A DNA stretch of 64,000 nt. Source: a virus. The translations under genes were made by a program, and so were the position numbers. Position 1 is the first letter of the stretch. Each line of letters begins with the position of its first letter. The DNA is taken from the UHGV virus genome UHGV-0164982; one strand, given 5' to 3'. The notes beneath the pieces are model-generated. The model did not search any database. It saw only the letters and a program-made list of their open reading frames with translations, and was not told the origin of the DNA. Shown one piece after another: positions 13,648 to 59,000 of the stretch.

Positions 13648-13648
13648 A

Positions 13649-15292: not shown

Positions 15293-15612
15293 GCTGATTC
15301 CCCTTTCTCTGCTCTCTCCTGTCGGAACATCACTATCATCAGGTCGCCTTTTGTCGCTATCCTGGCTGTTGTACCTGGTTCAATGCGGCTAAGCTCAAAT
15401 GCGTCATAGAACGCTTCTAATGCCTTCTGGCGTAGTTCCTGTTTGCGCCGTTTTTTCCACTGTTTTAGGAAAATGGAACCCAGCCATCGCCATGTACGGG
15501 ACATGATGTAAAGCCAACCGAGAAGTGCCAGACCGGTATTTAGGAGCGTATCGATCGTTATTGTCGTGTCGATATTCACTGGCTGCTTCCTTTGCGAATC
15601 TGTTCCGCCCAT
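15289..15612 (-). CDS. small membrane protein
   Basis: 107-aa ORF with hydrophobic segment LLNTGLALLGWLYI; overlaps neighbours. Confidence 0.3.
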   Translation of the reverse strand: MGGTDSQRKQPVNIDTTITIDTLLNTGLALLGWLYIMSRTWRWLGSIFLKQWKKRRKQELRQKALEAFYDAFELSRIEPGTTARIATKGDLMIVMFRQERAEKGESA

Positions 15613-16453: not shown

Positions 16454-17027
16454 TGGTTGCCCCCTGAATACGCTTAAACTCGATTACCCACACCCAAGGA
16501 TTAGCGTTCCAACTATCTTCGCCATAAATTGATTTCCATAGGCTACGGAAACTTGGGTAATGCTTATCGCCAATGAGGGTCGATTCTGTTGGTGCGCCCT
16601 CAGCCCTTGCATCGCATTCGCTGATATCGTTCAACCGCTCAACGCGCACGTTGGTAATTTCCAGAAGAATGCGCGATGCCCAGCGCGGCATGTGAATTGA
16701 TGGCGTCCACTTTTCTGATACTGGTTTATTACAAACCTCGACCGGAACCCGGTGCGTTTGTTCTGTCCAGGAGTTACGCACGCTTGCGCGATAAACCAGC
16801 GTTGCGACGTCCGTCGCTTTGCCATGTACCCGGTAGGTTTCGCGAACCCAAATACGATCGCCCGGTTGACCATATGGACAATGCTTGGCAAGCAACTCTG
16901 CGGCCACTGCCCGTCCATAGAATTTTTCTTCAACAATCCTGCGAGTCTGTGTTTTATTCCCGCCAAGAATTGCCCGGACCATCTCATCGTTAAAAATCAT
17001 GCCGCGCTCTTTCACTTCGCCTTTCAT
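16440..17027 (-). CDS. conserved phage protein of unknown function
   Basis: 195-aa ORF (MIFNDEMVRAILGGNKTQTRR...), first sizeable gene downstream of operator at 17206. Confidence 0.5.
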   Translation of the reverse strand: MKGEVKERGMIFNDEMVRAILGGNKTQTRRIVEEKFYGRAVAAELLAKHCPYGQPGDRIWVRETYRVHGKATDVATLVYRASVRNSWTEQTHRVPVEVCNKPVSEKWTPSIHMPRWASRILLEITNVRVERLNDISECDARAEGAPTESTLIGDKHYPSFRSLWKSIYGEDSWNANPWVWVIEFKRIQGATSEQN

Positions 17028-17205
17028 GCATCCCCCTTACCCATGTGCGACGATGCCGCCAAAAGTGATAGAGAACAGCCAGAAATAGATCGCGGCCATA
17101 ATGATTTTGAATGCCGTGTTCATATTTTCAGCTCCTGTGATTGATTGGATACATGCCGCGCCTTGCGGCATGTTTTTATTTTCACTTTCTCTGTTTTAAA
17201 AATCA

Positions 17206-33039: not shown

Positions 33040-35294
33040 ATTGCTATAACGTCATGAGCAACACCACGAGTGTCTCCCTTACAAGACACAGAACGTCTGG
33101 CAAAAAGAGGTTCCACTCTGAAGCCACTGTCCTGATAAAGTTCTCTGATGTTTGGCGCGCCACTGTTAGTAATGAGAACCTTTGCACCTCGGCGATGAGC
33201 ATCCGTCAACAGAGACACCAGGCGTTTTTGCTCTTCAAACTTAAAGTCATGACCGGAATAGTTCGTGAACCCCTCTGTATTGGGGAGCGGTTCATACGGC
33301 GGATCGCAAAAGATGACATCTCCTTCTCCGGCAGCTTCAATCACCGCTGCAAAATCACCGCATACAAACTCAGACCGCCCTTCCGCACCGAGGAAGGCTT
33401 CCATCTCCTGTAATGGAAAATGCGTAGACTTATACTTCCCATACCCGACATTGAACTCACCGGCCTGGTTGTAGCGCGTCAATCCATTAAAACAATGTCG
33501 GTTCAGGAACAAAAACGCCGCTGCGCGATGTAAATCATCATAGACTTGTTTGTTAAACGCATTCCGTACTGCCAGGAATCCCTCCTGGGTGTTGTAGTCC
33601 AGGAAGAAACGATGTGCCAGAGTGATAAGTGAATGCGCCTCGCGTTGCAGAGTCTTGTAAAAGTTAATCAGGTCAGCATTCACATCATTTAGCAGATTTT
33701 CCTGATATCCGGCATTCATGAAGACAGCTCCGCCACCAACGAAAGGTTCAATCAGGCGCTTCCCTTCTGGCAAATAGCGAAAGATTTGTTCCAGAACACC
33801 AAATTTTCCACCAGCCCATTTGAATATGGGCCGTTCGAATTCTGCCGCTGGTTTAACCTTTCGCTCTTTTGTTTCACTCCCTTCTTTTTGCCGACATGCA
33901 GCCTTAGTAATCCGATCGCCAATCCAGCGCATTACTGGTATTGCCATACTATTGCCGATCGCTTTGTAACGCGGTCCGTCAGCTGCAAGCATCGCGGCCT
34001 CTTCTTCGCTTAAATCTGGATAGTGATTGCGAAGATATGCCAGTTCATCTGAATTAACTTTTTTACGCTTTTCCGTCGGGATCAACGTATGCCCATCAGG
34101 AAAACCTTGCAGCCTTTCACATTCGACAGGGGTAAGACGGCGGACAGCTACTTCTGCGTTTCTTACTTCATAGCAAACAGCTGTTGGATTTTTAGCCATT
34201 AGAGATGGTGAAGTATTCTTAGTTGCAGCATGTTGTGTACCGCTCATACGCTCAGGAAAAGCCAATGTAACAAGATGCTCATGGCTTTCTTGCTCACGTG
34301 CCCGCAATGTACCATGCCCTTCTGACCAAAAACCTGCTCCTGTGCTGCTAAAAACGGCAAGGTCAGTGGCATCTTTAAAATCTCTTGCCTTTACTGTCGA
34401 TGCGGTTTCATCGTCAATATATTCCCCAAATGCCGCCATCCTGAAAGCGTTTACGGCTTTCGTCGATTTCATACCGGGTGGCATGTCAGCGTGTAGGCAT
34501 GGATTTAGGCTTTCGCCACTGATTGCAGCGCCATTTGCAATAATGGCGGAAGCGATTTCCTTCTTTTTTCGGCTCGGCGCAATATTCCGGCGCACGCCTT
34601 CGAACTCAAAAAGTACCGTTGCGGGATCGAGGTCTGTTCGAGCACTTGCGACAACAAACACGCGTCGGCGTCGTTGTGCCACTCCGAAGTATTGGGCATC
34701 AAGGATTCTCCAGGCCACCTTTCGCTGCGGTCCATAAATACAACCACACTGCGGCCACTTTGGAGCATGGCAACCGGTTTTGACATCCCACCGCCAGAAC
34801 GTGTTACTTTTTCGTGATTCAGGTCGATCACCAGGTTCGAATGGCGCATCTTCTCCAGCCAATCCGGCAAGGAAACATCCGAACGCGTTGTCTGCTGATG
34901 ACAGGACTCCTGGGACATTTTCCCAGACGATAACTGTCGGTTTGAGGAAGGACTCAGACCGTTTGTCGTCAATTGCATTTGCAAGCTCCACATACTTCAA
35001 AGTTAGCGCGCCGCGTTCATCATCAAGCCCACCACGTAAGCCCGCGATACTGAATGCCTGACAAGGCGTACCCCCGACGAGCACATCAGGGGCTTCAATT
35101 TCTCCGGCCTGGACTTTTTGGGCGAGTTTTGTCATGTCGCCAAGGTTCGCGACATGGGGCCAGCGGTGCGCAAGAACGGCAGATGGAAAAGGCTCGATTT
35201 CAGCAAACCACGCCGGACGCATACCCAACGGTTCCCATGCAATGCTCGCGGCTTCAATTCCACTGCAAACAGATCCATAGCACAGCTCTCTCAC
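33030..35294 (-). CDS. dmt: bifunctional DNA methyltransferase Dmt (C5-cytosine MTase N-domain fused to Dam-like N6-adenine MTase)
   Basis: 754 aa; [12 protein letters not shown] and ENV motifs N-terminal; KWAGGK and DPPY motifs C-terminal. Confidence 0.85.
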
Positions 35295-36199
35295 TGCTTA
35301 GCCTCTCCGCCCAGGGCATTTACCAGAGCATCAACCAGGCAAGAAATTTCACTGGTTAACAGGAAGAAATCTGCGTCCAGTCGCTGCGCAACATCTTCAC
35401 TATCAATATCAGAGTTCTGCTCAAGCAATTCATCCGCAAATTTGACGCTGGTAAGGCTGAAATTATGGTCCAGTGTAAATTTAATGCGGTTCTGCCAGTC
35501 GAGTGCCAACTTTGTGACGAGCTTGCCAGCTTCCAGGTGTGTGGAAATTTCATCGCTTCCCAAATCCTGCTTTTTCACTCGGGCGATACCGCCATCCTCA
35601 AGCACGGCCTTAAGTTCTGCCGCATCCCCCATTTGAAATCCCTGTGGAGCACTAGCATCACGTACCCAGTCGGTCAGCGTTAACTCAATGGGATTTTCAA
35701 CACTTAGTGGCACAACAGGAAGAGAACCCAGAGACTTACGCATAAGCGCGAGCATATCCTCTGCCTGCCGCGCGCTGGCATTGATATAGATGCGTTTAGT
35801 TGAACCGTCGTAGATCGCCTGGATAACAGAAAACTTTGAAAAAGCCCGTGGCAGAAGAGAATGTAGAACTTCGTCTTTCAGGGAGTCCTTCTCTGTTTTC
35901 TTCAGTTTACGCGCTTGTTCTTGCTCAAGTTTTTCAATTTTCTCTTGAATAGCTCGCTGGATAACCGGCGGGGGAAGAATTTTTGTTTCGCGCTTTGCTT
36001 CAACAAGGATAAAACCATTTCCATGCATAGCGATAACTTCGGAATTATCGCCAAATGGAGATACAAAACCGAACTTGGCCATATCCTGACTACCGCATGG
36101 CGTGAAAAGGATCATTTTCTTTTTATCTTCTAAGTCGGTCAGATCCGCCTCACGAGAAAGTTTATAAATAGTAATGTTTTTCCAGTGCTTAAACATGTT
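35291..36199 (-). CDS. hrdC: RdgC homolog
   Basis: [20 protein letters not shown] matches the RdgC N-terminus; start taken at internal ATG 36199. Confidence 0.75.
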
Positions 36200-36545
36200 G
36201 TAACCCTTGAATATCAACCACAGAAAGCTCGTCTTTGTAGAAAAAGGCCAGGTTGTGGCACCCCCTCGTTTGAGCGTATGAGCTGGGACCAATTTCGTTC
36301 TTCCAGACAAATGGCTTCAAATCCGTACGGCGAAGCATAAAAACGCGATTTGTTCCGCTCTGATTCCCAATGAGGCAAAAGCCTTCTTTCACCTTGATAG
36401 CCTGCAAGTTGTCGAGTTCACCGCTGGTTACACGGCTATCGAACTCCTTGCGGCTTATTAGCTCCATCTGCATCTGACGACTCCAAACAAATGCCCATTG
36501 AAGGGCGATGGCTGAATGGTACCGAAAATACGACATAAAAAACAA
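36189..36545 (-). CDS. hypothetical protein upstream of hrdC (uhr position)
   Basis: 118-aa ORF, first gene after operator at 36545. Confidence 0.4.
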
Positions 36546-36561
36546 TATTTATTAGAGCAAT
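36545..36561 (-). promoter_or_regulatory. C1 operator-like site for the uhr-hrdC-dmt operon
   Basis: ATATTTATTAGAGCAAT, 16/17. Confidence 0.7.
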
Positions 36562-36642
36562 TTTGTAATAAGTAAACGCCATACAGACCACAAATAACCT
36601 AAGTTAAAATAACGAAAATCAGAGCAAATAATTGGTGATGGC

Positions 36643-36927
36643 GTGGCAAGTATTGCAACAAAAGACAGCATTTGTTCGGGGCACGGAGGATTCCCATCCA
36701 GGCCTCCTGTAGAGAGTGAACCACTACTTAAAGTCAACGGAGTCGAAGTGTTAGTTGATGGTAAGCAATATGCACAGCATACCGATGGAAACAGTACGCA
36801 CGGTGGGCAAGCTATATCAACCAGGGCATGGTTTACCGTCAATGGTAAAGGGATCGTATGCGTTGGTGACCCTGTTTCATGCGGATCTACCGTAGCGTCC
36901 GGAGACGGCCTGGTTCAGGTAAGTTAG
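36643..36927 (+). CDS. PAAR-like spike-tip protein
   Basis: 94 aa; repeated G-rich beta motifs SICSGHGG and VGDPVSCG. Confidence 0.4.
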   Translation: MASIATKDSICSGHGGFPSRPPVESEPLLKVNGVEVLVDGKQYAQHTDGNSTHGGQAISTRAWFTVNGKGIVCVGDPVSCGSTVASGDGLVQVS

Positions 36928-36935
36928 GAGATATC

Positions 36936-37718
36936 ATGCTGGAAAAAGACTACCAGTTATCCGCATATAAAAAATTGGCCGCCGCCGGTGGGATGAAAAC
37001 ACCTGGTGCCATAACATCGGCACGAAACAGTGCTAACACAGCAAAACTGCTTGCAGAAGAATTGACCGGATTAATTCTGGATACAATTGTCTATCCCAAC
37101 ACTATTACCAGCTATGTTTCAACGATCAAAACAACCACAACCGGCTTAACGAACATTGGAGAACTGGCAACTAAGCACGCGGACCTGTTGGCTGGTTATG
37201 CAGATCTGTCAATGCTGCTTCAACTCGATATTGGTTGGGATGTTTACTGCCGTGCTAATGAGCGAGAAGTTTCAGAACTGCCGATCTCTATTGCCATTGG
37301 TGATGTGAATATTACTAAATCGCTTGAGGACACTGTTAACGCGCTTAATACATCAAGTTTAGTCGCTGCTATGGGGGAGATTAACCAGACCCTTAACACT
37401 GGCTCAGGAAGCTCGTCAGGCTCTGGTTCAGGCGGTGGCACTCCCCCACCAACACTAACAGAAGAGCAAATTGAATCTCTGAAAGTAGCAACTGAACAGT
37501 TTGGGGTTGTTTTCAACCAGACAATAGCGCCCACAACTGCGTTACAACAGCAGTATGAACGAGCGAATGAAAGCGCCAACGTAGCCATAACTGCTTATAA
37601 CCATGCTATCAGTACCGCGCTTGCGGAAGCATCAGCAAATAAGGCCAGCACAGCCAGCGCAGTTGCCGCTTTGGTTCCTGATTCTGTTCTTAATGAATTA
37701 AACAAAGCGGCACAGTAA
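36936..37718 (+). CDS. hypothetical protein with Ser/Gly-rich linker
   Basis: Start ATG 36936 with TAGGAG RBS; 260 aa. Confidence 0.5.
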   Translation: MLEKDYQLSAYKKLAAAGGMKTPGAITSARNSANTAKLLAEELTGLILDTIVYPNTITSYVSTIKTTTTGLTNIGELATKHADLLAGYADLSMLLQLDIGWDVYCRANEREVSELPISIAIGDVNITKSLEDTVNALNTSSLVAAMGEINQTLNTGSGSSSGSGSGGGTPPPTLTEEQIESLKVATEQFGVVFNQTIAPTTALQQQYERANESANVAITAYNHAISTALAEASANKASTASAVAALVPDSVLNELNKAAQ

Positions 37719-37757
37719 CAAAGGACTTCATTGATAATTTTTCTTCAGGAGGAAGAC

Positions 37758-38180
37758 ATGTCATTCTTTTCTACGTTAAAAACAGCTTTGTCTTTGAAGG
37801 AGAAACTTGCTGCTACTGGTGTTCTTGTTCTGATTTGCGCACTTGTTGGTGCTGGGTTTGCATGGGAACGTCATCAGCTAAAGCAAGCCATGGAGAAAAT
37901 TGGCAGTCTTGATCAGGCTGTTAAGGAACGTGATAAGTCAATAATGGATCTTAACCAGACCATTGAGACGATGAACAAAGCAGATCAACATTTTCACAGC
38001 CAGGAAGTGAAAAATGAATCAGAGCAAGCCAAGTATGCTGACAGGCAAATGGAACGAAAAGCAGAAGTTCAGAAACAACTGGTTGCGGCGGGTAATGTTC
38101 GCCAGCGCATTCCTGCTGACACTCAGCGGTTGCTCCGGGAGTCGATCAGCGAATTTAACGCCGACGCCGACAAAGGTTAA
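37758..38180 (+). CDS. i-spanin (Rz-like): N-terminal TM helix plus coiled coil
   Basis: AGGAGG RBS; TM LAATGVLVLICALVGAGFAW; 140 aa. Confidence 0.5.
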   Translation: MSFFSTLKTALSLKEKLAATGVLVLICALVGAGFAWERHQLKQAMEKIGSLDQAVKERDKSIMDLNQTIETMNKADQHFHSQEVKNESEQAKYADRQMERKAEVQKQLVAAGNVRQRIPADTQRLLRESISEFNADADKG

Positions 38181-38346
38181 CCACCCTGCCCCCAAAAGTG
38201 CATTTATGTGCAGGATGCCGGAGTTTAGCAGTGAATATTTTGATGATCTGCCAGCGTATATCCTCGATACAGAAACGATGCTGATGGGGATTAACAGGAA
38301 GAATCGCAACGTTAATGATTACAACCGCGCTATCAGCGGTAACTAA
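38095..38346 (+). CDS. o-spanin (Rz1-like) lipoprotein overlapping the i-spanin 3-prime end in the +1 frame
   Basis: MFASAFLLTLSGC lipobox, Pro-rich mature part; 86-nt overlap. Confidence 0.5.
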   Translation: MFASAFLLTLSGCSGSRSANLTPTPTKVNHPAPKSAFMCRMPEFSSEYFDDLPAYILDTETMLMGINRKNRNVNDYNRAISGN

Positions 38347-38357
38347 AAGGGATTTTT

Positions 38358-38750
38358 ATGTCTGATAAAGTAACAGTTAAGCAAACTATCAACAAAGCGA
38401 CTTCAATCTATAAAATTGAGCAAATCACTGTTGGCAAGCCAGGATCTGAACAATACCGTCATGCTTTCGAACTTGCTGATCAGCTTGGTTTAAAACATCC
38501 AGATTGTATCGAGCATGTATTTCCAACTTATGCTGATGAGCAATGTAATCAAGTGCTTATTGAAGAGGATTTTTTCAGCACTGAAGAACGAGAAGGCGTT
38601 GATCGCTGCATTGGTGTGATTTGTTCTTCGGTAAGTGATGATTTATTCCCTAATGTTCCGGAAGGTGGTGGTGTTGGATACCAATTCCTGTATGAAGGCG
38701 ATGAGCTTAAATGTTATGAACATGGTCTTCTTATCGAAAGCGTAGAATAA
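38358..38750 (+). CDS. hypothetical protein
   Basis: 130-aa ORF. Confidence 0.45.
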   Translation: MSDKVTVKQTINKATSIYKIEQITVGKPGSEQYRHAFELADQLGLKHPDCIEHVFPTYADEQCNQVLIEEDFFSTEEREGVDRCIGVICSSVSDDLFPNVPEGGGVGYQFLYEGDELKCYEHGLLIESVE

Positions 38751-38790
38751 TACGGTTTCCTTCTAACCGGCTTTGTTGGCCGGTTTTTCA

Positions 38791-38875
38791 CTTATCCACA
38801 TTATCCACTGAGTAGATCCAATAATTAGGTCCATACAGATCCCAATTAGATCCATATAGATCCCTGATCGTTGCA
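38791..38875. promoter_or_regulatory. oriR: oriR core: tandem DnaA boxes and five GATC-containing heptamer repeats
   Basis: TTATCCACA TTATCCACT then repeated AGATCC units. Confidence 0.75.
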
Positions 38876-38908
38876 GGCCGCGCCACGTCTGGCTTAGAAG
38901 TGTATCGC

Positions 38909-39012
38909 GATGTGTGCTGGAGGGAAATCGATGTGTGCTGGAGGGATAAAAATGTGTGCTGACGGGTTGCTAATGTGTGCTGGCGGGATATAGGATGTGT
39001 GCTGACGGGAAA
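38909..39012 (+). repeat. incC: incC, five 19-bp RepA iterons
   Basis: Five copies of GATGTGTGCTGGAGGGAAA-like repeats. Confidence 0.9.
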
Positions 39013-39068
39013 GCCTGGGTAGTTATCACCGCTTATAAAAACTATCCACATAATTCGGAAAAAGTAAT

Positions 39069-39929
39069 ATGAATCAATCCTTTATCTCCGATATTCTTTA
39101 CGCAGACATTGAAAGTAAGGCAAAAGAACTAACAGTTAATTCAAACAACACTGTGCAGCCTGTAGCGTTGATGCGCTTGGGGGTATTCGTGCCGAAGCCA
39201 TCAAAGAGCAAAGGAGAAAGTAAAGAGATTGATGCCACCAAAGCGTTTTCCCAGCTGGAGATAGCTAAAGCCGAGGGTTACGATGATATTAAAATCACCG
39301 GTCCTCGACTCGATATGGATACTGATTTCAAAACGTGGATCGGTGTCATCTACGCGTTCAGCAAATACGGCTTGTCCTCAAACACCATCCAGTTATCGTT
39401 TCAGGAATTCGCTAAAGCCTGTGGTTTCCCCTCAAAACGTCTGGATGCGAAACTGCGTTTAACCATTCATGAATCACTTGGACGCTTACGTAACAAGGGT
39501 ATCGCTTTTAAGCGCGGAAAAGATGCTAAAGGCGGCTATCAGACTGGTCTGCTAAAGGTCGGTCGTTTTGATGCTGACCTTGATCTGATAGAGCTGGAGG
39601 CTGATTCGAAGCTGTGGGAGCTGTTCCAGCTTGATTATCGCGTTCTGTTGCAACACCACGCCTTGCGTGCCCTTCCGAAGAAAGAAGCTGCACAAGCCAT
39701 TTACACTTTCATCGAAAGCCTTCCGCAGAATCCGTTGCCGCTATCTTTCGCCCGAATCCGTGAGCGCCTGGCTTTGCAGTCAGCTGTTGGCGAGCAAAAC
39801 CGTATCATTAAGAAAGCGATAGAACAGCTTAAAACAATCGGCTATCTCGACTGTTCAATTGAGAAGAAAGGCCGGGAAAGTTTTGTAATCGTCCATTCTC
39901 GCAATCCAAAGCTGAAACTTCCCGAATAA
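39069..39929 (+). CDS. repA: plasmid replication initiator RepA
   Basis: 286 aa flanked by iteron arrays; recognised as P1 RepA. Confidence 0.9.
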   Translation: MNQSFISDILYADIESKAKELTVNSNNTVQPVALMRLGVFVPKPSKSKGESKEIDATKAFSQLEIAKAEGYDDIKITGPRLDMDTDFKTWIGVIYAFSKYGLSSNTIQLSFQEFAKACGFPSKRLDAKLRLTIHESLGRLRNKGIAFKRGKDAKGGYQTGLLKVGRFDADLDLIELEADSKLWELFQLDYRVLLQHHALRALPKKEAAQAIYTFIESLPQNPLPLSFARIRERLALQSAVGEQNRIIKKAIEQLKTIGYLDCSIEKKGRESFVIVHSRNPKLKLPE

Positions 39930-40213
39930 GTGTGTGCTGGAGGGAAGATGCATTAAAAAAATGTGTGCTGACGGGAAGGCTTGTCCAATTTCCTGTTTTT
40001 GATGTGCGCTGGAGGGGGACGCCCCGCAGTTTGCCCAGACTTTCCCTCCAGCACACATCTGTCCATCCGTTTTTCCCTCCAGTGCACATGTAATTCTCTG
40101 CCTTTCCCTCCAGCACACATATTTGATACCGGCGATCCCTCCACAGCACATAATTCAATGCGACTTCCCTCTATCGCACATCTTAGACTTTTATTCTCCC
40201 TCCAGCACACATC
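39928..40213. repeat. incA: incA, nine RepA iterons (three direct, six inverted)
   Basis: Nine 19-bp iteron copies counted by eye. Confidence 0.9.
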
Positions 40214-40486
40214 GAAGCTGCCGGGCAAGTCGTTCTCACCAGTTGATAGAGAGTGAAGCCGGGCTGCCCGTTGAAGCAGGAAATCACCAAAATGATTCAG
40301 GCTACAACCTGAACATAGAAGAAATCCGCGTCCTTTACGCGTGGAGGATGCCAAAGCATGTTGTGACACACTTGGCAAAGGAGTAAACATGCAGGGAATG
40401 CTATGTACAAGCATCTACGCATACATTATTATTTTATGCAGCATTTTTAATTAAATTCAAAAATACAGCATAAAGGATGACTTTCG

Positions 40487-41683
40487 ATGAGTGATTCCAG
40501 CCAGCTTCACAAGGTTGCTCAAAGAGCAAACAGAATGCTCAATGTTCTGACTGAACAAGTACAGTTGCAAAAGGATGAGCTACACGCGAACGAGTTTTAC
40601 CAGGTCTATGCGAAAGCGGCACTGGCAAAATTGCCTCTACTGACTCGAGCGAACGTTGACTATGCCGTAAGTGAAATGGAAGAAAAGGGTTATGTTTTCG
40701 ATAAACGCCCTGCTGGCTCTTCAATGAAATATGCGATGTCAATTCAGAACATCATTGACATATATGAACATCGCGGAGTGCCAAAATACCGGGATCGCTA
40801 CAGCGAAGCGTATGTGATTTTCATCTCCAATCTTAAAGGCGGTGTGTCAAAAACTGTATCGACGGTTTCTCTGGCGCATGCAATGCGTGCCCACCCTCAT
40901 CTTCTGATGGAAGATTTAAGAATTCTGGTTATTGACCTTGATCCGCAATCTTCAGCAACGATGTTTTTAAGCCATAAACACTCTATTGGTATCGTAAACG
41001 CAACATCTGCACAGGCTATGTTGCAGAATGTAAGCCGTGAAGAGCTGTTAGAGGAGTTTATTGTTCCTTCTGTTGTACCTGGGGTTGACGTTATGCCTGC
41101 GTCGATTGACGATGCCTTTATTGCATCCGATTGGAGAGAGCTGTGCAATGAGCATCTACCGGGTCAGAACATCCATGCAGTCCTGAAAGAAAATGTGATT
41201 GATAAGCTGAAGAGCGATTATGACTTTATCCTCGTTGATAGTGGTCCTCACCTTGACGCCTTCCTGAAAAATGCTTTGGCCTCGGCCAATATACTGTTTA
41301 CACCTCTGCCGCCTGCAACGGTTGATTTCCACTCATCGCTTAAATACGTTGCCCGCCTTCCTGAGTTGGTGAAACTCATTTCGGATGAAGGCTGCGAGTG
41401 CCAGCTTGCGACTAACATTGGTTTTATGTCCAAGTTGAGTAACAAGGCAGACCATAAGTATTGCCATAGCCTGGCTAAAGAAGTGTTCGGTGGGGATATG
41501 CTTGATGTCGTCCTCCCTCGCCTTGACGGTTTTGAACGCTGCGGCGAGTCTTTTGACACTGTTATTTCAGCTAACCCGGCAACGTATGTTGGTAGTGCTG
41601 ATGCATTGAAGAACGCGCGAATTGCCGCGGAAGATTTTGCTAAAGCAGTTTTTGACCGTATTGAATTTATCAGATCTAACTGA
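40487..41683 (+). CDS. parA: partition ATPase ParA
   Basis: 398 aa with deviant Walker A KGGVSKT. Confidence 0.9.
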   Translation: MSDSSQLHKVAQRANRMLNVLTEQVQLQKDELHANEFYQVYAKAALAKLPLLTRANVDYAVSEMEEKGYVFDKRPAGSSMKYAMSIQNIIDIYEHRGVPKYRDRYSEAYVIFISNLKGGVSKTVSTVSLAHAMRAHPHLLMEDLRILVIDLDPQSSATMFLSHKHSIGIVNATSAQAMLQNVSREELLEEFIVPSVVPGVDVMPASIDDAFIASDWRELCNEHLPGQNIHAVLKENVIDKLKSDYDFILVDSGPHLDAFLKNALASANILFTPLPPATVDFHSSLKYVARLPELVKLISDEGCECQLATNIGFMSKLSNKADHKYCHSLAKEVFGGDMLDVVLPRLDGFERCGESFDTVISANPATYVGSADALKNARIAAEDFAKAVFDRIEFIRSN

Positions 41684-41699
41684 GGAGTAAGAAACCCCC

Positions 41700-42701
41700 A
41701 TGTCAAAGAAAAACAGACCAACAATTGGGCGAACCCTTAATCCTTCAATATTAAGCGGATTTGATAGTTCTTCAGCCTCTGGCGATCGAGTCGAGCAGGT
41801 ATTCAAGTTATCAACTGGTCGCCAGGCCACATTTATTGAAGAGGTAATACCTCCGAACCAGGTAGAAAGCGATACCTTTGTTGATCAGCATAACAACGGG
41901 CGTGACCAGGCATCTCTTACGCCAAAATCATTAAAAAGTATCCGAAGCACTATTAAGCATCAGCAATTTTACCCTGCAATAGGTGTTAGACGGGCTACAG
42001 GGAAAATTGAAATTTTGGATGGTTCCCGGCGTCGAGCTTCTGCCATCTTAGAGAACGTAGGGTTGCGGGTTTTAGTCACGGACCAGGAGATCAGCGTTCA
42101 GGAAGCGCAAAATTTAGCGAAAGACGTTCAGACAGCATTGCAGCACAGCATTCGAGAAATAGGTCTGCGTTTGATGCGAATGAAAAATGATGGGATGAGT
42201 CAGAAGGATATTGCAGCCAAAGAAGGGCTGTCTCAGGCGAAGGTCACGCGTGCTCTCCAGGCAGCGAGTGCTCCGGAAGAATTAGTCGCCCTTTTCCCTG
42301 TGCAGTCGGAATTAACCTTTTCGGACTACAAAACGCTTTGTGCTGTTGGCGACGAAATGGGGAACAAGAATTTAGAGTTTGATCAGCTTATTCAAAACAT
42401 ATCCCCGGAAATAAACGACATCTTATCCATTGAAGAAATGGCCGAAGATGAAGTTAAAAATAAAATCCTGCGCTTGATAACAAAGGAAGCCTCACTACTC
42501 ACGGATAAAGGTTCTAAAGATAAGTCCGTAGTTACTGAATTATGGAAATTTGAGGACAAGGATCGCTTTGCAAGGAAGCGCGTGAAAGGCCGTGCATTTT
42601 CTTATGAGTTTAATCGACTCTCAAAAGAGTTACAGGAAGAACTCGACAGGATGATTGGGCATATCCTTAGAAAGAGCCTCGATAAAAAGCCGAAGCCTTA
42701 A
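41700..42701 (+). CDS. parB: partition protein ParB
   Basis: 333 aa immediately downstream of parA. Confidence 0.9.
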   Translation: MSKKNRPTIGRTLNPSILSGFDSSSASGDRVEQVFKLSTGRQATFIEEVIPPNQVESDTFVDQHNNGRDQASLTPKSLKSIRSTIKHQQFYPAIGVRRATGKIEILDGSRRRASAILENVGLRVLVTDQEISVQEAQNLAKDVQTALQHSIREIGLRLMRMKNDGMSQKDIAAKEGLSQAKVTRALQAASAPEELVALFPVQSELTFSDYKTLCAVGDEMGNKNLEFDQLIQNISPEINDILSIEEMAEDEVKNKILRLITKEASLLTDKGSKDKSVVTELWKFEDKDRFARKRVKGRAFSYEFNRLSKELQEELDRMIGHILRKSLDKKPKP

Positions 42702-42800: not shown

Positions 42801-42905
42801 CTTCCTCCCCTCCTCCCGAAAAAAATAAAAAAATTGCTTGTCACGAGAAAGTCAACAAGTGACTTTCAATAAAATCTCTTCCGAAAAGGGATTCACACAA
42901 GTGCC

Positions 42906-48361: not shown

Positions 48362-48517
48362 TTACCTTTCAGATTCGTAGGCTGTGAAGACAGTGACCTC
48401 CGTCTGGCCGGTTCGGATTCGTACCTCGCAGAGGTCTTTCCTCGTTACCAGTGCCGTCACAATGACGGTTAAACAGATGACGATCAGAGCGATTAACATC
48501 GCTTTTTGCTGCTTCAT
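48362..48517 (-). CDS. hok: Hok/Gef-family type I toxin
   Basis: MKQQKAMLIALIVICLTVIVTALVTRKDLCEVRIRTGQTEVTVFTAYESER, hand-translated; below ORF-track cutoff. Confidence 0.85.
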   Translation of the reverse strand: MKQQKAMLIALIVICLTVIVTALVTRKDLCEVRIRTGQTEVTVFTAYESER

Positions 48518-48698: not shown

Positions 48699-49025
48699 TC
48701 AATGTCTGGCTTTTTTTCTATAGAAATCACCAGGTAGGGTGAATATCCACATCAGAAGAAATGTTGCAGCAAACATGATCCCTAATGGCCAGACCGCGCC
48801 AAAGAAAATCCATACTAAGATCTCCTCTGCTCGTTCTTTGCGGTCGATATCGACAAGCATTTTTCGGCTGATCATGTATACACAGAAGCCAATACAAACA
48901 TATCCTGCAAAAGCGATCGCTAACTGTAAAAAATCAGATTGCATCTCCGACCTCAAACTGAAAACGCCAGGTGACTCCAGATTAGAGCAATCTATCACCC
49001 TCTGAATCCTGCCGGTATACCCCAT
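48699..49025 (-). CDS. small membrane protein
   Basis: 108-aa ORF with two hydrophobic segments. Confidence 0.35.
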   Translation of the reverse strand: MGYTGRIQRVIDCSNLESPGVFSLRSEMQSDFLQLAIAFAGYVCIGFCVYMISRKMLVDIDRKERAEEILVWIFFGAVWPLGIMFAATFLLMWIFTLPGDFYRKKARH

Positions 49026-49840
49026 TGTTCGTTATCTTTATTTTTGGCTAAAACCGCATTAAGAGCTTCGTTTACCGTCATGCAATGCGGCAGATTATCG
49101 AAGTTTGATACCCCGCCAATATCAGGAGAACGCTTGTTCTTCAGGTAAGCATATTTCCGCGCTGCCGCCTCTACCTTCTGCTTGAACTCATGTTTTTGAG
49201 CGCGTTTTTTGGATAAACGCAGATTGTCGGCCTTTGCTTTTGCCCCAGCGATCCATGAAGTCAATTTTTTGAGTTTGGTCGTTCCGGCAGCGCCGGAAAC
49301 TGATCTTTTTGTTTTTTTAAATTGTGACTTCTTATTCTTTATTGCCACGTCATCCTGACAGGGGGAGGGGGTATCATTTTGACATGGGGGTGTGGATAAA
49401 AAATCAAATAAAGCCAATGTCTTAGCGAGAACAGCTTTAACCTTGGTTGCGGCTGAAGAGATCTTTAATTTGCTTTCAATCAGCGCATTTTGGGCTTGTT
49501 GTGCGAAGGCCAAAAAGGATGGGGTAAACCGGTACAGGTTAGCGCGACGTTCACGGTGATCGCCGATAACAATCTCTACTGACAGGATTCCTTTGTTTAC
49601 AGCTTCACGGAATGCACGAACGACGGTTGATTGGCTATAACCAGTTTCTGCCGCGATCAGGCGGTGAGGCTTGTGAATGAAGTATTCACTGGTTGTTGCC
49701 GCGAGATTTGCACATTGCGACAGGATATGCCCGGCGCTACGGGATAGACCGGAGTGTGTTACAAAGCAGGCCAATTCATAGCCAGAAAAAGTAAAATCGC
49801 TCATCGTTATACAGCTAAGGAAAGTGACTTTAGCCAGCAT
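48995..49840 (-). CDS. repL: lytic replication initiator RepL
   Basis: 281 aa, downstream of kilA under the operator at 50740. Confidence 0.75.
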   Translation of the reverse strand: MLAKVTFLSCITMSDFTFSGYELACFVTHSGLSRSAGHILSQCANLAATTSEYFIHKPHRLIAAETGYSQSTVVRAFREAVNKGILSVEIVIGDHRERRANLYRFTPSFLAFAQQAQNALIESKLKISSAATKVKAVLAKTLALFDFLSTPPCQNDTPSPCQDDVAIKNKKSQFKKTKRSVSGAAGTTKLKKLTSWIAGAKAKADNLRLSKKRAQKHEFKQKVEAAARKYAYLKNKRSPDIGGVSNFDNLPHCMTVNEALNAVLAKNKDNEQWGIPAGFRG

Positions 49841-52708: not shown

Positions 52709-53230
52709 ATGATTCTTATGTCTAAAAAGTATACTTTATGCGCTCTTGTTGTATCTGCAATTCTTCTTTCTGGGTGTCAATCTAGCGGTGCTGATTATGC
52801 TGCCGATGTTTATGATACCGCTCAATTGAATTCGAAGCAGGAAACAAAGACAGTCAATATTATCTCTGTGCTTCCAGCTAAAGTGAAAGTTGATAATAAA
52901 GCTAATAAAGAAGCGGCACAGACATTTGGTGCGGTACTGGGAGCTGTTGCTGGGGGCGTTGCCGGTTATAATGTTAAAGGCACATCGACACTGGGTGCTG
53001 TAGCTGGCGGTACTGGTGGTGCGGCTCTTGGTGCAGCGGCTGGTTCTTTGGTTAGTGATAAAACAATTGTTGAAGGTGTTTCACTGACTTATAAAGAAGG
53101 AACTAAGGTGTTCACTTCAACTCAAGTTGGTAAAGCATGCCAGTTTACAACGGGGCTTGCTGTGCTTATTTCAACTAAAGATAATGAAACTCGAATTCAG
53201 CCAAATGCTACTTGTCCAGAAAAGAAATAA
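52709..53230 (+). CDS. glycine-zipper lipoprotein (AT-rich cargo)
   Basis: Lipobox LLSGC; Gly-rich GAVLGAVAGGVAGY and GAVAGGTGGAALGAAAG segments. Confidence 0.6.
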   Translation: MILMSKKYTLCALVVSAILLSGCQSSGADYAADVYDTAQLNSKQETKTVNIISVLPAKVKVDNKANKEAAQTFGAVLGAVAGGVAGYNVKGTSTLGAVAGGTGGAALGAAAGSLVSDKTIVEGVSLTYKEGTKVFTSTQVGKACQFTTGLAVLISTKDNETRIQPNATCPEKK

Positions 53231-53233
53231 TTT

Positions 53234-53773
53234 ATGAATAAAATTATTTTATTTCTAATCTTTTCTACGTTTAGTGTAGGCACTGCCTTGGCTAACTCGT
53301 TGCAAAGTCAAATTGCTGCTATTGCTCAGGCGGAAAATGAAGGGCGAGCTAAAGAGCAGCAAGCTGAGGATGCCAGAAAAGAACTTATTCGCCAACAAGC
53401 ACAAGCTGAACGTATTAGAAGAGAAAAAGCAGCATCTGCCGCTGCTGCACGCGAAAAACAGCGTGTTGCTGCAGAAAATGAACGTAGAGCGAAACGAGAA
53501 GCCGAGCTAGCAAATGACAAGAAGCGAGATCAAGCTTATGAGGATGAGCTTCGCAAGCTGCAACTCGAAAGCATGAAACTCGAACTGCAAGCAAAAGCGG
53601 CTCGTGTCCAGCGAGAAAACGATTTTATAGAGCAGGAGTTGAAGGAGAGAGCAGCTAAGACAGATGTAATTCAGTCTGAGGCTGATGCAAATAGAAATAT
53701 TTCTACAGGAAGTAAAGATTTACTGCAAAGCGAAGGAAAAGCTAGAGAGAAGAAAGCTAGCAGTTGGTGGTAG
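53234..53773 (+). CDS. secreted, highly charged coiled-coil protein (AT-rich cargo)
   Basis: Signal peptide MNKIILFLIFSTFSVGTALA; Ala/Glu/Arg/Lys-rich repeats. Confidence 0.55.
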   Translation: MNKIILFLIFSTFSVGTALANSLQSQIAAIAQAENEGRAKEQQAEDARKELIRQQAQAERIRREKAASAAAAREKQRVAAENERRAKREAELANDKKRDQAYEDELRKLQLESMKLELQAKAARVQRENDFIEQELKERAAKTDVIQSEADANRNISTGSKDLLQSEGKAREKKASSWW

Positions 53774-56019: not shown

Positions 56020-59000
56020 ATGGAAAGAAAAAACGCCAACATTGACGATGTGATAAGGACGGTTGAAACCGCCAGCGCAAAAGAGCTGGAAGAGCTTGCA
56101 GGTATTCGGGAAGCCGTTGAAGATTTGAAAGGGGGGCGAGTTGCTACAGTTGATCCTGTCTCTCGCAGTGTGTCGGCATTAAATCGCACAATCGAAAATT
56201 CCCAGCCAGACTTTGTGGCCAATGCGCCATCAGTGGACCCTATTGTTGAGGCAATGAAACGGCTTAATTTAGGGGACGTTTCTCGTGTAGTTCAGGAGGA
56301 TGTTGCTCTACAGGAACCGCAGGCCAAATCAACTACGCGAAAGGGTAAAAAACGACGCAAGAAGGCTATAACAGAAGATGTAAAGGCGCAACGGACCGAA
56401 GCAGCCGAACACGCTCGCGAAATGTTCGGTCAAAAAGACGGTGCGCAAAAAAGCCAAAACCAACGCGATGCGCGTGGTCGTTTTATTGGAAAGTCAGGGA
56501 GTAAGGCCGCAGCGGAAGATGCCCGTGCTGAACGTGCTGAAAAGGACAGGCGCAAAGAGGATGATGAGCGTCTAAATGCTGAATCAGGTTTATTAAAAAA
56601 ACTGTCAAAAGTAGCTGAAGGCATAGGTAACCCTTCAGAGACTCGTGCCGTCGATGCGTTAGGTTATGCCGTTGCTGGTCCATTGTGGGCCGCAGGGAAG
56701 GAGCTTGGCGGGATATCAAAAGAAGTTGGTGGATCGCTTAATGGTGCCAGAAAGTCTATTGCCGATGTGATTCGTGGCAATGACGATAACAGCCGTAGAA
56801 AAGGTTTTTTTAGGCGTAAATCGCAAAATAGTGCCGATGTCGTTCAGGTTAACACCCAAAAACGGACGGTTCAGGAACTTCAGGAGCAGACCAGCGAAAT
56901 TAAAGAGGGCAATGACAAGATTCTCAGCGCCCTTGATCAGATAGCCAAAAACACCGGGAAAAAGAAGGGCGGCTTGCTGTCCAAATTATTTAGCCTGTTA
57001 GGGAAGGGGGCCGGTGGCGTCGCGTCGTTGTTAATGGGGCGTGGCATGCTGAAAAAAGCTGGAGCACTCGCTTTTGGCGCTCTGGGGGCAAAGAAACTTG
57101 TAGGAATGCTACGCGGTGGTGGCAAGAAGACTCTCGCCCATGAAGGCGGAGATTTGGCTGCCCGGGCAGCAGGTAAACTTGGATTAAAGGCAGTTGGTAA
57201 AGGGGCGTTACGCGCAATTCCCCTGGTCGGCACAGTGGCTGGAGGTATTTATGATGCGGTAACCGGTTGGAATGATACAGAAGCGCAACGTCGAGCGTTT
57301 GGGCTTAAATCAGGACAAGATCCATCATTCCAGCAAAAAGCCGCTTATACGTTAGCTAATGTTCTTGATATGGGGGGGCTTGTATCTGGTATTAGCAGCG
57401 CCATTGGTGAGGTTCTCAAATCACTTGGATTTGAGGATATCGGCAATATGTTGCAATCATTTTCGACGGAAAGTATTGCCCAGGCCATTGATAGTGGGAT
57501 TACCAACTTAGAAACATATATTTCTAACCTTGGCGACACGATTTCTACCAAGTTCGATGATTACACAGCAAAGATTGGTGATGCTGTTTCAGCATGGTTT
57601 AGCGATACATCTAATAAGCTGCTTGAAAAGCTGGATGCCATCAAAGACTTCTTTACTGTCGATAACCTGAAACAGGTTTTCAGTGATGCAATTGATAGTG
57701 CAATTGATTTCATTAAGAACCCAGGGAAACACATTAAAGAGGCGGCTGGTAATATTTGGGATGGGGTTAAAAATTTACCCGGTAAAGCATTAGATGCAGC
57801 GTTTGATGCCGTTAAAAATACCCCTGCGGCAATGATTGTATCAAAAATACCCAATCCGATCGGCGAGGCTAATGCGAAAGAAATCACTCCAGAGTTAAAA
57901 GCTCTGGTTAATAGCCACCAGGAGACGTCTGATTCTAAAACTGAATCCGATGCCAAACAGAGTAATATTGCTACCCGCGTGATAAATGCGGCACTGGACA
58001 CGGCGAAAGATAGCAATAAAACAGTTAAACAAACTGCCAATCAGATTATCAATGCAAATGCAGTAGAAACGGGCAATAGCGCGTTGCAGAAAATTGATAA
58101 AGCTATTGGTCAAAATAGCTCGTCATCATCGTCGCTTAATACCACTGGCACCAGGAATGACATTCAGAAAGCTGCGGATACCTACAATAATGGCAACTTG
58201 GATGTAAAAGTCGGAAGTCTTGGCGCTGAAGGTAAGGCAAATCTCGATAAGTTGGCTCCGTATTTTGCTGAACTAGAGAATAAATATGACCTTCCTGAAG
58301 GTACTCTTTACGCGATCGCTGCAACTGAATCTGGTGGTAATCCTAACGCAAAATCTACGCTTACAAGATCACCAAATGGAAAGCTAAGTGGTGGCGCTCT
58401 CGGAATGTTCCAGTTTACGAGCGTTGCTCGTGAGGAAACTGGATTATCCCGGGAAGATTCTTTTAATCCGGAAAAATCGGCAGAAGCTGCGGCTCTTCTC
58501 ATGAGCAAGTATCTGAAGCAAGCCAATGGAGACTTAAACGAGGCCATCACTGCATATAACGCTGGGTTTGGCACTATCAATAAGTGGAAAAAAGGCACAG
58601 GTGACTTATCGAAAGAAAACCGTGAGTACGCGATCAAGGTCAATACTCATCGTGCTCGCTATTTAGGTGGTGAAATCTATACACCTGGAGCAGGAGCACA
58701 GGGTGGGGCGCAATATGGAGTGAGGGGACCACTGCCTGATAACGCTGTTATCGATCAGTCTACTGGCCTGGCGTTTACCCCTGGTGATAGCCCGTTTGAG
58801 AAAGGCGGTCTGGTAGACAAAATCGGCAATGCTGTTGGCGTTAACGATCTGGTCAACAAATTCATGAATGGCCGGGGTATGCGTCGGGAAGTCGTTCAGG
58901 GAACGCTCGAAGAACGTGCACGAGGGAAGGGGACCGCAACAGCAGCTGGCAATGTGTATGTTGATACTCCGATGCCAGTTGAAGAGGCGCGTCCGGTGGC

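Follow-up and report, generated by a model that had tools for sequence, protein, structure and literature searches.

Two partly overlapping genes occupy positions 37758 to 38346 of the window, by which we mean the whole 64-kb stretch of DNA that was analysed. They belong to a rightward operon of five genes, upfC-upfB-ppfA-mlp-upfA, and the features of the operon and its borders are as follows.

36545 to 36561, minus strand: C1 repressor operator (P1 Op68/Odmt), between the divergently oriented genes uhr and upfC
36592 to 36632, plus strand: candidate promoter region for upfC-upfB-ppfA-mlp-upfA, proposed from sequence
36643 to 36927, plus strand: upfC, PAAR-motif protein, first gene of the operon (phrog_281, 2e-30; P1 annotation)
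36937 to 37718, plus strand: upfB, with ATG 36937 as its likely start (phrog_1559, 6.5e-132, aligned from residue 20)
37758 to 38180, plus strand: ppfA, predicted i-spanin of 140 aa from ATG 37758 (phrog_89 'Rz-like spanin', 2.5e-25)
38014 to 38346, plus strand: mlp, predicted o-spanin precursor, 110 aa when read from ATG 38014 (phrog_30284, 1.9e-56)
38014 to 38180, plus strand: dual-coding overlap of 167 nt, read in the ppfA frame and in the +1 frame of mlp
38358 to 38750, plus strand: upfA, last gene of the operon (phrog_1453, 4.5e-59; P1 annotation)
38765 to 38785, plus strand: intrinsic-terminator-like hairpin with an 8-bp stem, 5 of its pairs G-C, followed by a T run

The source element is a P1-like phage-plasmid (Punavirus). 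The region is 98% identical at the DNA level to P1, to P7 and to further Punavirus records, in which the two matching genes are labelled either ppfA/mlp or Rz/Rz1, and the gene order is that of P1 (dmt-hrdC-uhr, upfC-upfB-ppfA-mlp-upfA, oriR-repA-parA-parB). PpfA and Mlp share 98.6% and 97.3% of their residues, respectively, with the P1 proteins, and the P1 genes have the same lengths (140 and 110 aa), the same 167-nt +1 overlap, the same Shine-Dalgarno sequences and flanks, and the same distance to oriR/repA. PpfA departs from its P1 counterpart by the substitutions M45I and D76E, and Mlp by S4N, Q17L and A32V, all of which fall in the signal-peptide region and leave mature Mlp unchanged. Elsewhere, the element differs from P1 in carrying a TnpB/pPIWI-nuclease segment in place of the tRNA region and in having variant sim and rlf regions. 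The first-pass annotation, made from the letters of this DNA, had reported an overlapped spanin pair here, and the coordinates it gave (37758-38180 and 38014-38346) were exact. From the sequence, it is highly likely that the pair is ppfA/mlp of a Punavirus and represents a predicted overlapped two-component spanin. P1 gp064 and gp063 have already been catalogued as an overlapped i-spanin and o-spanin (OIS/OOS) pair (Kongari et al. 2018, PMC6139136 Table S1), and the P1 spanin genes have been described as partially overlapping and as part of an operon unlinked to lyz/lydD/lydE and to lydC/lydA/lydB (Bednarek et al. 2022, PMC9025707). The pair and its unlinked position are thus known for P1, and the observation is correct but ordinary, since it is already known as a peculiarity of that phage that these genes lie far from its other lysis genes.

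We compared the two proteins with the criteria for two-component overlapped spanins, which reportedly go back to Summer et al. in 2007, together with Kongari et al. in 2018, and which concern a single type II transmembrane domain (TMD), gene overlap, a periplasmic Cys and placement relative to the holin and endolysin genes. The ppfA start codon is preceded by a Shine-Dalgarno sequence, AGGAGG, at 37747-37752. Kyte-Doolittle hydropathy of PpfA (19-residue window) peaks at 2.35 over residues 17-35, LAATGVLVLICALVGAGFA, with no second hydrophobic segment, which defines an N-terminal TMD at residues 17-36 (nt 37806-37865) behind a Lys-rich N-terminus (Lys8, Lys14 and Lys16). This profile, together with an AlphaFold2 helix that is unbroken through the TMD, fits a type II (N-in/C-out) protein with a single TMD. 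The AlphaFold2 model, which is of moderate confidence (mean pLDDT 68), consists of a helix at residues 13-110, a break at 111-119 and a second helix at 120-138, and the predicted periplasmic domain of 104 aa thus forms a helix, a short linker and a helix, and is devoid of Cys. The best heptad contrast over 28 residues was 0.825, a value reached in only 6 of 2000 shuffles. The description of this gene as encoding an Rz-like protein with a transmembrane helix plus a coiled coil is therefore borne out by hydropathy, AlphaFold2 and the heptad test alike. Neither PpfA nor Mlp matched the Pfam Rz and Rz1 families at E <= 0.1. Because direct profile comparisons of PpfA with P2 LysB or lambda Rz gave no significant similarity, its assignment as an i-spanin is based on architecture and one PHROG profile. 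In a word-indexed protein search, PpfA matches were confined to P1-like elements, the lowest identity being 59%.

The second gene, mlp, is read in the +1 frame relative to ppfA (the start positions of ppfA and mlp are 0 and 1 modulo 3). Its lipobox, LSGC, is encoded by nt 38122-38133, with Cys40 at codon 38131-38133 and a Ser rather than an Asp at position +2. For P1 Mlp, LipoP places the cleavage at residue 39 (PMC6139136 Table S1). Mature Mlp has 71 aa and, beyond the lipobox Cys40, a single Cys at precursor position 66 (Cys66), which supplies the pair with a periplasmic Cys and would be the site of a predicted disulfide. A periplasmic Cys in either subunit is present in 507 of 528 spanin systems (PMC6139136). 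The ORF, its frame and Cys40 could all be located, as expected for the +1-frame overlapping lipoprotein with lipobox LSGC that had been proposed. The further description of this protein as Pro-rich applies in a modest sense, with 6 Pro among the 71 mature residues (8.5%), 5 of them within the first 30.

Three codons come into question as the start of mlp: ATG 38014, TTG 38083 and ATG 38095. With any of them the gene begins within ppfA, which ends at 38180, and runs on to 38346, so that the pair is overlapped rather than embedded. ATG 38014 has a Shine-Dalgarno sequence, and both the codon and this sequence occupy the same position in four lineages, in which the internal starts vary; yet it implies a signal peptide of 39 residues, which Kongari et al. 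flagged as 'too long' (PMC6139136 Table S1). ATG 38095 (MFASAF...), the start implied by the first-pass annotation, is conserved within the P1 lineage only.

To follow the two frames over a greater distance, we used a divergent comparison set consisting of Cronobacter phage JK004 and two contigs, one traced from a protein named for Klebsiella aerogenes and the other part of a Salmonella assembly, whose PpfA proteins are 59-60% identical to that of the window. The gene order around ppfA-mlp is likewise the same in these elements, and all three carry a +1 ORF of 109-110 codons with the same start offset. Across the three divergent lineages, the window and P1, Mlp has 52 invariant columns, which include both Cys residues; its conserved core reads FMCRMPE...DDLPAYILDT, the lipobox Cys is invariant in all five, and the lipoboxes of the divergent relatives are the non-canonical LNAC and LNGC. 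Nucleotide identity to the divergent lineages is 85-86% in the 3' 86 nt of the overlap, compared with about 60% in the part that encodes PpfA only. This stretch of about 85% identity encodes the C-terminal helix of PpfA together with the h-region, lipobox and mature N-terminus of Mlp, and nowhere in the ppfA/mlp pair is the DNA more conserved than in the dual-coding segment. These patterns suggest that both frames are under selection. They also bear on the alternative that ppfA alone is genuine and that the lipoprotein ORF is a frame left open by chance. Such a frame would not be expected to persist at the same offset in four lineages, where PpfA identity falls as low as 59%, with the lipobox Cys, a second Cys and a Shine-Dalgarno sequence ahead of its ATG. 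What speaks for a chance ORF comes from annotation: PGAP makes no mlp call in the close relative NZ_CP196034, other gene callers drop or shorten mlp in L007-L010, and Mlp has no Pfam match. However, o-spanins are documented to be under-annotated, in 196 of 528 systems (PMC6139136), and we consider a chance origin of the frame exceedingly improbable.

With mlp taken as a genuine gene, we compared the pair with characterized spanin systems. The prototype overlapped pair, P2 LysB/LysC, has the same architecture as PpfA/Mlp. In BLASTP, Mlp matched P2 LysC with E = 4e-8 and 37% identity over 68 residues, with the lipobox and the second Cys aligned, a match that again argues against a chance frame. 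Mlp also matched phrog_456 at 1.2e-4, and P2 LysC showed the reciprocal pattern with respect to phrog_456 and phrog_30284. Judged by these alignments, Mlp is homologous to P2 LysC. Its partner PpfA has phrog_89 in common with P2 LysB (2.5e-25 over residues 21-139 of PpfA and 5.8e-61 for LysB); compared directly, PpfA and LysB gave nothing in BLASTP and a probability of 1.5% in hhalign. The two systems differ in their placement, with the P2 pair lying in the lysis cassette right after holin Y, endolysin K and lysA, whereas the P1-type pair belongs to a different operon, next to the plasmid origin.

The link to P2 also brings in the older view that such genes modulate the timing of lysis rather than disrupt the outer membrane. 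This view survives in database records, where P1 mlp is 'possibly involved in regulation of lysis (by homology)' and P2 lysB and lysC are 'nonessential; affects timing of lysis'. The timing description of the P2 genes is older than the spanin concept, and the same P1 and P2 records now read 'Rz-like spanin'. In addition, the topology signals of PpfA and Mlp suit a complex that spans the periplasm and not a regulator of holins. A timing role in place of membrane disruption is, in our judgement, very unlikely.

The experimentally characterized Rz/Rz1 pair of lambda, which is embedded, shares the predicted topology of a type II helical protein combined with a +1-frame outer-membrane lipoprotein, and a membrane-fusion mechanism would presumably be common to both systems by analogy. 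Membership of PpfA and Mlp in the lambda Rz/Rz1 family was considered and rejected on the basis of Pfam, PHROGs, BLASTP and hhalign: the lambda proteins belong to phrog_13 and phrog_3198, families with no match to PpfA or Mlp, and the hhalign probabilities were 1.6% and 4.5%. The systems also differ in that Rz1 lies wholly within Rz, whereas the last 166 nt of mlp are beyond the end of ppfA; lambda Rz has two periplasmic Cys, whereas PpfA has none; and mature Mlp, at 71 aa, is longer than mature Rz1 at 40 aa. Mature Mlp is also less Pro-rich than lambda Rz1.

We then considered the position of the pair relative to other lysis genes. Searches of the 64-kb window by tblastn with P1 Lyz and LydA-E returned a best E value of only 0.058, over 23 residues, and these proteins are thus absent from the window. 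In a close relative, the holin-family genes and the lysozyme gene are annotated outside the part equivalent to the window. We also listed ORFs of 45-260 aa with a hydrophobic segment as holin candidates. The five that we judged plausible or uncertain (48699-49025, 11593-11730, 24786-24983, 20949-21209 and 48362-48517) were compared with PHROGs and matched no lysis family, one being a Hok/Gef-type toxin, one a member of a family without known function and three remaining unmatched. Further hydrophobic ORFs that lie antisense within long genes, such as Sit and the tail-fibre gene S, were taken as spurious. The segments that have no homologous counterpart in the closest plasmid (27.8-32.8 kb and 52.4-53.8 kb) were scanned and yielded no lysis gene, and the sole muralytic domain in the window, an SLT domain, belongs to the virion protein Sit (1140 aa). 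Hence the earlier statement that the window shows no holin or endolysin gene agrees with tblastn, with the annotation of the relative and with the PHROG scan of small membrane ORFs. The absence of a holin is in part an edge effect, because the window ends inside S and lydC-lydA-lydB lie about 3-5 kb beyond this point in relatives, beginning about 3.4 kb past the window end in one close relative. In P1, about 32 kb separate the spanin genes from lydA and about 42 kb separate them from lyz, distances that support the accompanying claim of dispersed lysis functions. The pair accordingly lies apart from a holin-endolysin cassette; a location inside or adjacent to one is typical of spanin genes and not obligatory for them. 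The T4 holin and endolysin genes are likewise at a distance from the spanin genes PseT.3/PseT.2 (PMC6139136, Fig. 8 legend), and an unlinked position is therefore no evidence against spanin function. As in PpfA/Mlp, the T4 i-spanin PseT.3 has no periplasmic Cys and the Cys residues are in the o-spanin; in contrast, the T4 genes are separate and do not overlap, and PseT.2 has two periplasmic Cys where Mlp has one.

Next, we examined the operon and its regulatory sites. Its first product, UpfC, scored 26.4 bits against Pfam PAAR_motif, slightly below the 27-bit cutoff. The longest ORF for upfB begins at 36879, while the homologues from JK004 and the Klebsiella-type element begin MLEKDYQL. The hairpin downstream of upfA would close the operon ahead of oriR/repA. 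Upstream, the C1 operator at 36545-36561 has one mismatch to the 17-bp consensus, is annotated at the equivalent position in P1 and retains its core in the divergent relatives; we give it as context, with no implication that it controls the rightward transcript. The candidate promoter region contains a sigma-70-like sequence, TTAAAA-17-AATAAT, and a degenerate sequence resembling an Lpa late promoter, AAATAACCT-N4-TAAAAT, at 36592-36610 with 2 mismatches. Its TAnnAT hexamer is conserved in four lineages and the -22 element in part. Using the motif AAGTNAYTT-N4-TANNNT, which we derived from the annotated P1 sites LPlyz and LPdar, we found nine matches in the window against 2.3 expected by chance, with exact matches at 42857 and 62094, and this window-wide search gave no match with one mismatch or fewer near the operon.

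Published RNA-seq data for P1vir, which concern P1 and not the present element, give wild-type log fold changes at 10 and 30 min of 5.57 and 11.25 for ppfA and 4.15 and 10.53 for mlp, compared with 6.05 and 11.35 for lyz and 5.21 and 11.77 for lydA (PMC8201110 Table S1). The five operon genes lie between 4.1 and 5.6 at 10 min and between 10.5 and 11.2 at 30 min, kinetics that resemble those of lyz, lydA, lydB, darA, S and 23, while the neighbouring genes uhr, hrdC and dmt have already reached 8.6-9.4 at 10 min (PMC8201110). The operon is thus late in P1, though it has no consensus Lpa promoter upstream.

These data also help in weighing the possibility that the two genes form an envelope module that serves some purpose outside lysis, for example in the prophage or plasmid state, in superinfection exclusion or in virion assembly. 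A role of this kind would explain the siting beside oriR and the operon shared with a PAAR-like tail-tip protein, and it draws on several observations: none of the known P1 lysis genes is linked to the pair, UpfC (PAAR), UpfB and UpfA carry no lysis annotation, there is no canonical Lpa promoter upstream and the P1 annotators predicted sigma-70 promoters only, and the spanin function in P1 is predicted, not experimentally verified (PMC9025707). CRISPRi knockdown of mlp or ppfA caused no plating defect (PMC10695390), a result that is neutral on spanin function because spanins are dispensable in laboratory conditions. Against a non-lysis role, the late expression of the operon tracks lyz and lydA/lydB, unlike that of the adjoining early and maintenance genes; Mlp is related to LysC and PpfA shares a PHROG with LysB, both P2 genes being part of a lysis cassette; the combination of a TMD protein with a +1-frame outer-membrane lipoprotein is specific to spanins; and T4 provides a precedent for unlinked spanin genes. 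We therefore regard a non-lysis role as improbable and favour a predicted spanin.

For the expression of this predicted spanin, we put forward a tentative proposal in two separate parts, which is possible but which we doubt on present evidence. Mlp may be made from ATG 38014, with an unusually long signal peptide of 39 residues whose n-region is strongly basic, and a shorter isoform may be translated from an internal start as well; in the second part, late transcription of the operon may proceed from a non-canonical Lpa-dependent promoter or by another mechanism. If so, the timing of the P1 spanin would be controlled apart from the three holin/endolysin transcription units.

The arrangement suggests how the pair could act in lysis. 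The five-gene operon beside the plasmid origin would be turned on late, at the same time as lyz and lydA/lydB, as in P1vir infection. PpfA would be held in the inner membrane by its N-terminal helix, with its mostly helical domain reaching into the periplasm, while Mlp would be exported, lipid-modified at Cys40, cleaved and, given the Ser and not Asp at position +2, directed to the outer membrane. From the lambda Rz/Rz1 precedent, we infer that Mlp dimers are disulfide-linked through Cys66 and that the periplasmic ends of PpfA and Mlp bind each other, giving a periplasm-spanning complex that the peptidoglycan meshwork keeps inactive. The unlinked SAR endolysin Lyz, the holins LydA, LydC and LydD and the antiholin LydB would be the first to act. 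Once the wall is degraded, the complex would collapse, bringing about fusion between inner and outer membrane as the last step of lysis.

As a textbook-type predicted spanin of a model phage, the pair has little importance beyond its correct annotation. To what was known, the present analysis adds the retention of the lipoprotein frame at about 60% PpfA identity, the link between Mlp and P2 LysC, and the late RNA-seq kinetics. Annotation pipelines still overlook o-spanins, as PGAP does with mlp in the close relative, and P1-like phage-plasmids may consequently often carry an unannotated lysis gene. Finally, among 5426 complete E. coli genomes we found the ppfA-mlp pair in 646 (about 12%), nearly always plasmid-borne, and some of these P1-like phage-plasmids carry resistance genes.

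Two overlapping open reading frames on the forward strand of the window encode a predicted spanin pair, and the first-pass annotation, which had called them an overlapped i-spanin and o-spanin, gave their extent exactly:

37758-38180, + strand: ppfA, ATG to stop, 140 aa, with an AGGAGG Shine-Dalgarno sequence upstream
38014-38346, + strand: mlp, ATG to stop, 110 aa, in the +1 frame relative to ppfA

The membrane helix and coiled coil described for the Rz-like protein are both borne out. PpfA is strongly hydrophobic in one segment, residues 17-35 (Kyte-Doolittle 2.35), with three lysines N-terminal to it, followed by 104 residues of which 36% are charged. An AlphaFold2 model of moderate confidence (18 homologues as input, mean pLDDT 68) predicts an unbroken helix from residue 13 to residue 110 and, after a break at 111-119, another at 120-138, and the heptad hydrophobic contrast of 0.825 in the best 28-residue window was equalled by only 6 of 2000 shuffles. 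The lipobox of Mlp likewise reads LSGC, as annotated. Its Cys is residue 40, the +2 residue is Ser, and the 71-residue mature protein contains one further Cys. The rest of the description also holds, except that "Pro-rich" is only mildly true of a mature part with six prolines (8.5%), five of them within the first 30 residues.

The region around the pair shares ~98% identity with phages P1, P7, RCS47 and SJ46 and with further Punavirus records, which name the genes ppfA and mlp or, in some cases, Rz and Rz1. Window positions 33606-42500 align end to end with the reverse complement of P1 59200-68100 at 97.5% identity, and the gene order is that of P1: dmt-hrdC-uhr on the reverse strand, then upfC-upfB-ppfA-mlp-upfA, oriR, repA, parA and parB. 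Identity to the P1 proteins is 98.6% for PpfA and 97.3% for Mlp, with all three Mlp substitutions lying within the signal peptide. Over its first 27.8 kb the window shares 99.3% identity with the 92-kb E. coli plasmid pFXCREC180-3. In addition, of 5426 complete E. coli genomes examined, 646 carry the 589-bp pair, at 662 places of which 645 are on plasmids, and some copies are 100% identical.

The spanin pair is already catalogued for the model phage P1, so the annotation was a correct reading of a known feature. Kongari et al. 2018 enter P1 (NC_005856) as "ovl" and place gp064/gp063 in a family of their own, "P1". They give the i-spanin, gp064, 140 aa, of which 104 are periplasmic and none of these is Cys, and the o-spanin, gp063, 110 aa, with a signal of 39 residues that LipoP cleaves at 39 and a mature part of 71 residues holding one periplasmic Cys (PMC6139136 Table S1). 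Bednarek et al. 2022 list the P1 spanins as predicted, without experimental verification and with the i and o labels swapped, and describe their genes as partially overlapping and as belonging to an operon separate from the other lysis genes (PMC9025707). Both genes were non-essential in a genome-wide CRISPRi screen (PMC10695390), and both are among the 21 extremely conserved genes in a survey of 77 P1-like phage-plasmids.

We compared the overlap in three diverged lineages in which PpfA identity is only 59-60%: Cronobacter phage JK004, a 91-kb contig whose protein is NCBI-named from Klebsiella aerogenes, and a Salmonella assembly. All three carry a +1-frame ORF of 109-110 codons that starts with an ATG at offset 259 (256 in P1 and the window) and stops beyond ppfA. 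A five-sequence Mlp alignment has 52 invariant columns, including the lipobox Cys, the second Cys and the core FMCRMPE...SEYFDDLPAYIL. Nucleotide identity to the diverged lineages is 60-62% where ppfA alone is encoded and 70-75% where mlp alone is, and reaches 85-86% in an 86-nt dual-coding stretch, which encodes the PpfA C-terminal helix together with the Mlp h-region, lipobox and mature N-terminus. Identity that is highest where both proteins are encoded is the pattern expected if both frames are under selection. This comparative evidence indicates that the overlapped lipoprotein frame is a real gene, and a spurious frame is unlikely. Automatic annotation has missed the o-spanin elsewhere: PGAP has ppfA and no mlp in the close relative NZ_CP196034.1 (5944-6936), and mlp is absent or shortened to 52 aa in gene calls on the metagenome and assembly contigs L007-L010, which carry relatives of the pair (around 6260-6589).

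The mlp ATG at 38014 is conserved in position and has a Shine-Dalgarno sequence, AGGAAG in the window and AGGAGG in JK004. Translation from it would give a signal peptide of 39 residues, its n-region long and basic; Kongari et al. marked the signal sequence of the P1 o-spanin as "too long" (PMC6139136). The start implied by the wording of the first-pass annotation, ATG 38095, is found in the P1 lineage only, and other lineages have an ATG or GTG 16-20 codons upstream of the Mlp Cys at no one conserved position. Divergent homologues on contigs L007 and L009 (both 6260-6589) have Asn at lipobox position -2 (LNAC, LNGC), outside the usual lipobox patterns, with the Cys and mature N-terminus still conserved.

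When the lambda and P2 spanins were searched against the same PHROG library, PpfA and P2 LysB both matched phrog_89, "Rz-like spanin" (2.5e-25 and 5.8e-61). Mlp matched phrog_30284 (1.9e-56) and, weakly, phrog_456, and P2 LysC matched phrog_456 and, weakly, phrog_30284. Mlp also aligns with LysC (E = 4e-8, 37% identity over 68 aa, both Cys included). The shared PHROGs and this alignment relate the pair to the P2 LysB/LysC overlapped spanins, a kinship that is clear for the lipoprotein and is seen at profile level only for the membrane protein; direct comparison of PpfA with LysB and with Rz gave no significant similarity. Membership of the lambda Rz/Rz1 sequence family was rejected, given this result, the different PHROGs of lambda Rz (phrog_13) and Rz1 (phrog_3198), and the lack of a match of either protein to the Pfam Rz and Rz1 families.

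On the best-supported reading, PpfA and Mlp join in a complex across the periplasm. Lyz would first degrade the wall, after which the predicted complex would fuse the inner membrane with the outer one, as has been shown for lambda Rz/Rz1; the steps beyond topology are drawn by analogy with that pair. That these spanin-like proteins instead constitute an envelope module with a role other than lysis is unlikely, and so is a role of the pair in the timing of lysis.

In P1, lyz-lydD-lydE lie at 20.0-20.9 kb, lydC-lydA-lydB at 30.4-31.5 kb and ppfA/mlp at 63.35-63.94 kb. The earlier statement that no holin or endolysin gene is visible in the window is correct: the six P1 lysis proteins had no tblastn match (best E = 0.058), lysis genes are absent from the segments that differ from pFXCREC180-3, and none of the small membrane ORFs falls in a PHROG lysis family. 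The sole muralytic domain in the window is an SLT (lytic transglycosylase) domain (7.9e-26) at residues 748-867 of Sit, which is known as a virion protein and not as an endolysin:

56020-59442, + strand: Sit, 1140 aa, with the SLT domain

The dispersal of lysis functions is real in P1-type genomes but exaggerated by the window edge: in pFXCREC180-3 the two holin-family genes start ~3.4 kb beyond the window end, and a lysozyme gene lies ~12 kb beyond. The 3' end itself falls within a tail-fibre gene, the final 62 nt matching a cix recombination site.

Two other small gene pairs were seen. A Hok/Gef-type toxin ORF (phrog_251, 4.9e-32) and a small protein of phrog_3772, a family of unknown function, adjoin at 48362-48517 (-) and 48699-49025 (-); the latter has two hydrophobic segments and a basic C-terminus, a holin-like shape with no holin-family match. 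At the site of the P1 sim (superimmunity) genes, an envelope pair at 52709-53230 (+) and 53234-53773 (+), with no spanin-family match, comprises a lipoprotein of 173 aa, with an LSGC lipobox, a glycine-zipper and a weak TraT-like match, and a DUF5384 protein of 179 aa, which has a signal sequence and a helical region rich in charged residues. This version is absent from the closest plasmid.

The genes upfC, upfB, ppfA, mlp and upfA lie close together on the same strand, with the following signals:

36604-36632: sigma-70-like match just upstream of upfC
38765-38785: terminator-like hairpin downstream of the operon genes

Also upstream of upfC, at a distance of 82 bp, is a C1 operator, which the P1 annotation assigns to the divergent dmt promoter. 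Nine matches (2.3 expected by chance) were found in the window to an Lpa late-promoter motif built from LPlyz and LPdar, two annotated sites. No match with at most one mismatch lies near the spanin operon, and one with two mismatches, at 36592-36610, is only partially conserved in relatives. Matches include:

42857-42875, + strand: exact, between parB and the + strand genes that follow
62094-62112, + strand: exact, in the tail-gene region near the window 3' end
49812-49840, both strands
7229-7247, - strand
24717-24735, + strand: within a baseplate-region gene, 50 nt 5' of an out-of-frame 65-codon ORF (24786-24983; two hydrophobic segments, no family match, probably spurious)

Expression during P1vir infection (RNA-seq, WT log fold change at 10 and 30 min; PMC8201110 Table S1)
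upfC: 4.86, 10.63
upfB: 4.12, 11.07
ppfA: 5.57, 11.25
mlp: 4.15, 10.53
upfA: 5.21, 11.24
lyz: 6.05, 11.35
lydA: 5.21, 11.77
lydB: 3.37, 11.01
uhr, hrdC, dmt (adjacent early genes): 8.6-9.4, 11.1-12.0

The kinetics of structural late genes resemble those of the spanin operon (PMC8201110). These matching late kinetics indicate that, in P1vir, the operon is co-expressed in time with the lysis genes despite being unlinked to them. The promoter motifs found do not account for the late timing.

The first gene of the operon, upfC (36643-36927, +), encodes a PAAR-motif protein (phrog_281, 2e-30) with 31% identity to T4 ORF 5.4 according to the P1 record, and it is unusual for spanin genes to have a tail-tip-type protein as an operon partner. 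The longest upfB ORF (36879-37718, +) probably does not begin at its true start, as the PHROG profile aligns from residue 20; ATG 36937 (MLEKDYQL, AGGAG upstream) is the probable start, as in JK004 and Klebsiella-type relatives.

Elsewhere, the 27.8-32.8 kb segment is not in the closest plasmid and carries two adjoining genes:

29710-30645, - strand: 311-aa protein matching both Pfam "predicted pPIWI-associating nuclease" domains (1.5e-34, 2.1e-33)
31490-32665, - strand: IS605-type TnpB (OrfB_IS605 and Cas12f1-like TNB)

ARAGORN found no tRNA gene in the whole window; at the place corresponding to this segment the closest plasmid has tRNA genes and P1 has at least trnT. Finally, hundreds of non-P1 phage matches to the first 22 kb arise from a gene block at 13000-17100 (-), made up of ead/Ea22-like, DUF4752 and other small genes. 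This block is common to lambdoid and Stx-converting phages, and its region reportedly varies strongly from one P1-like element to another.
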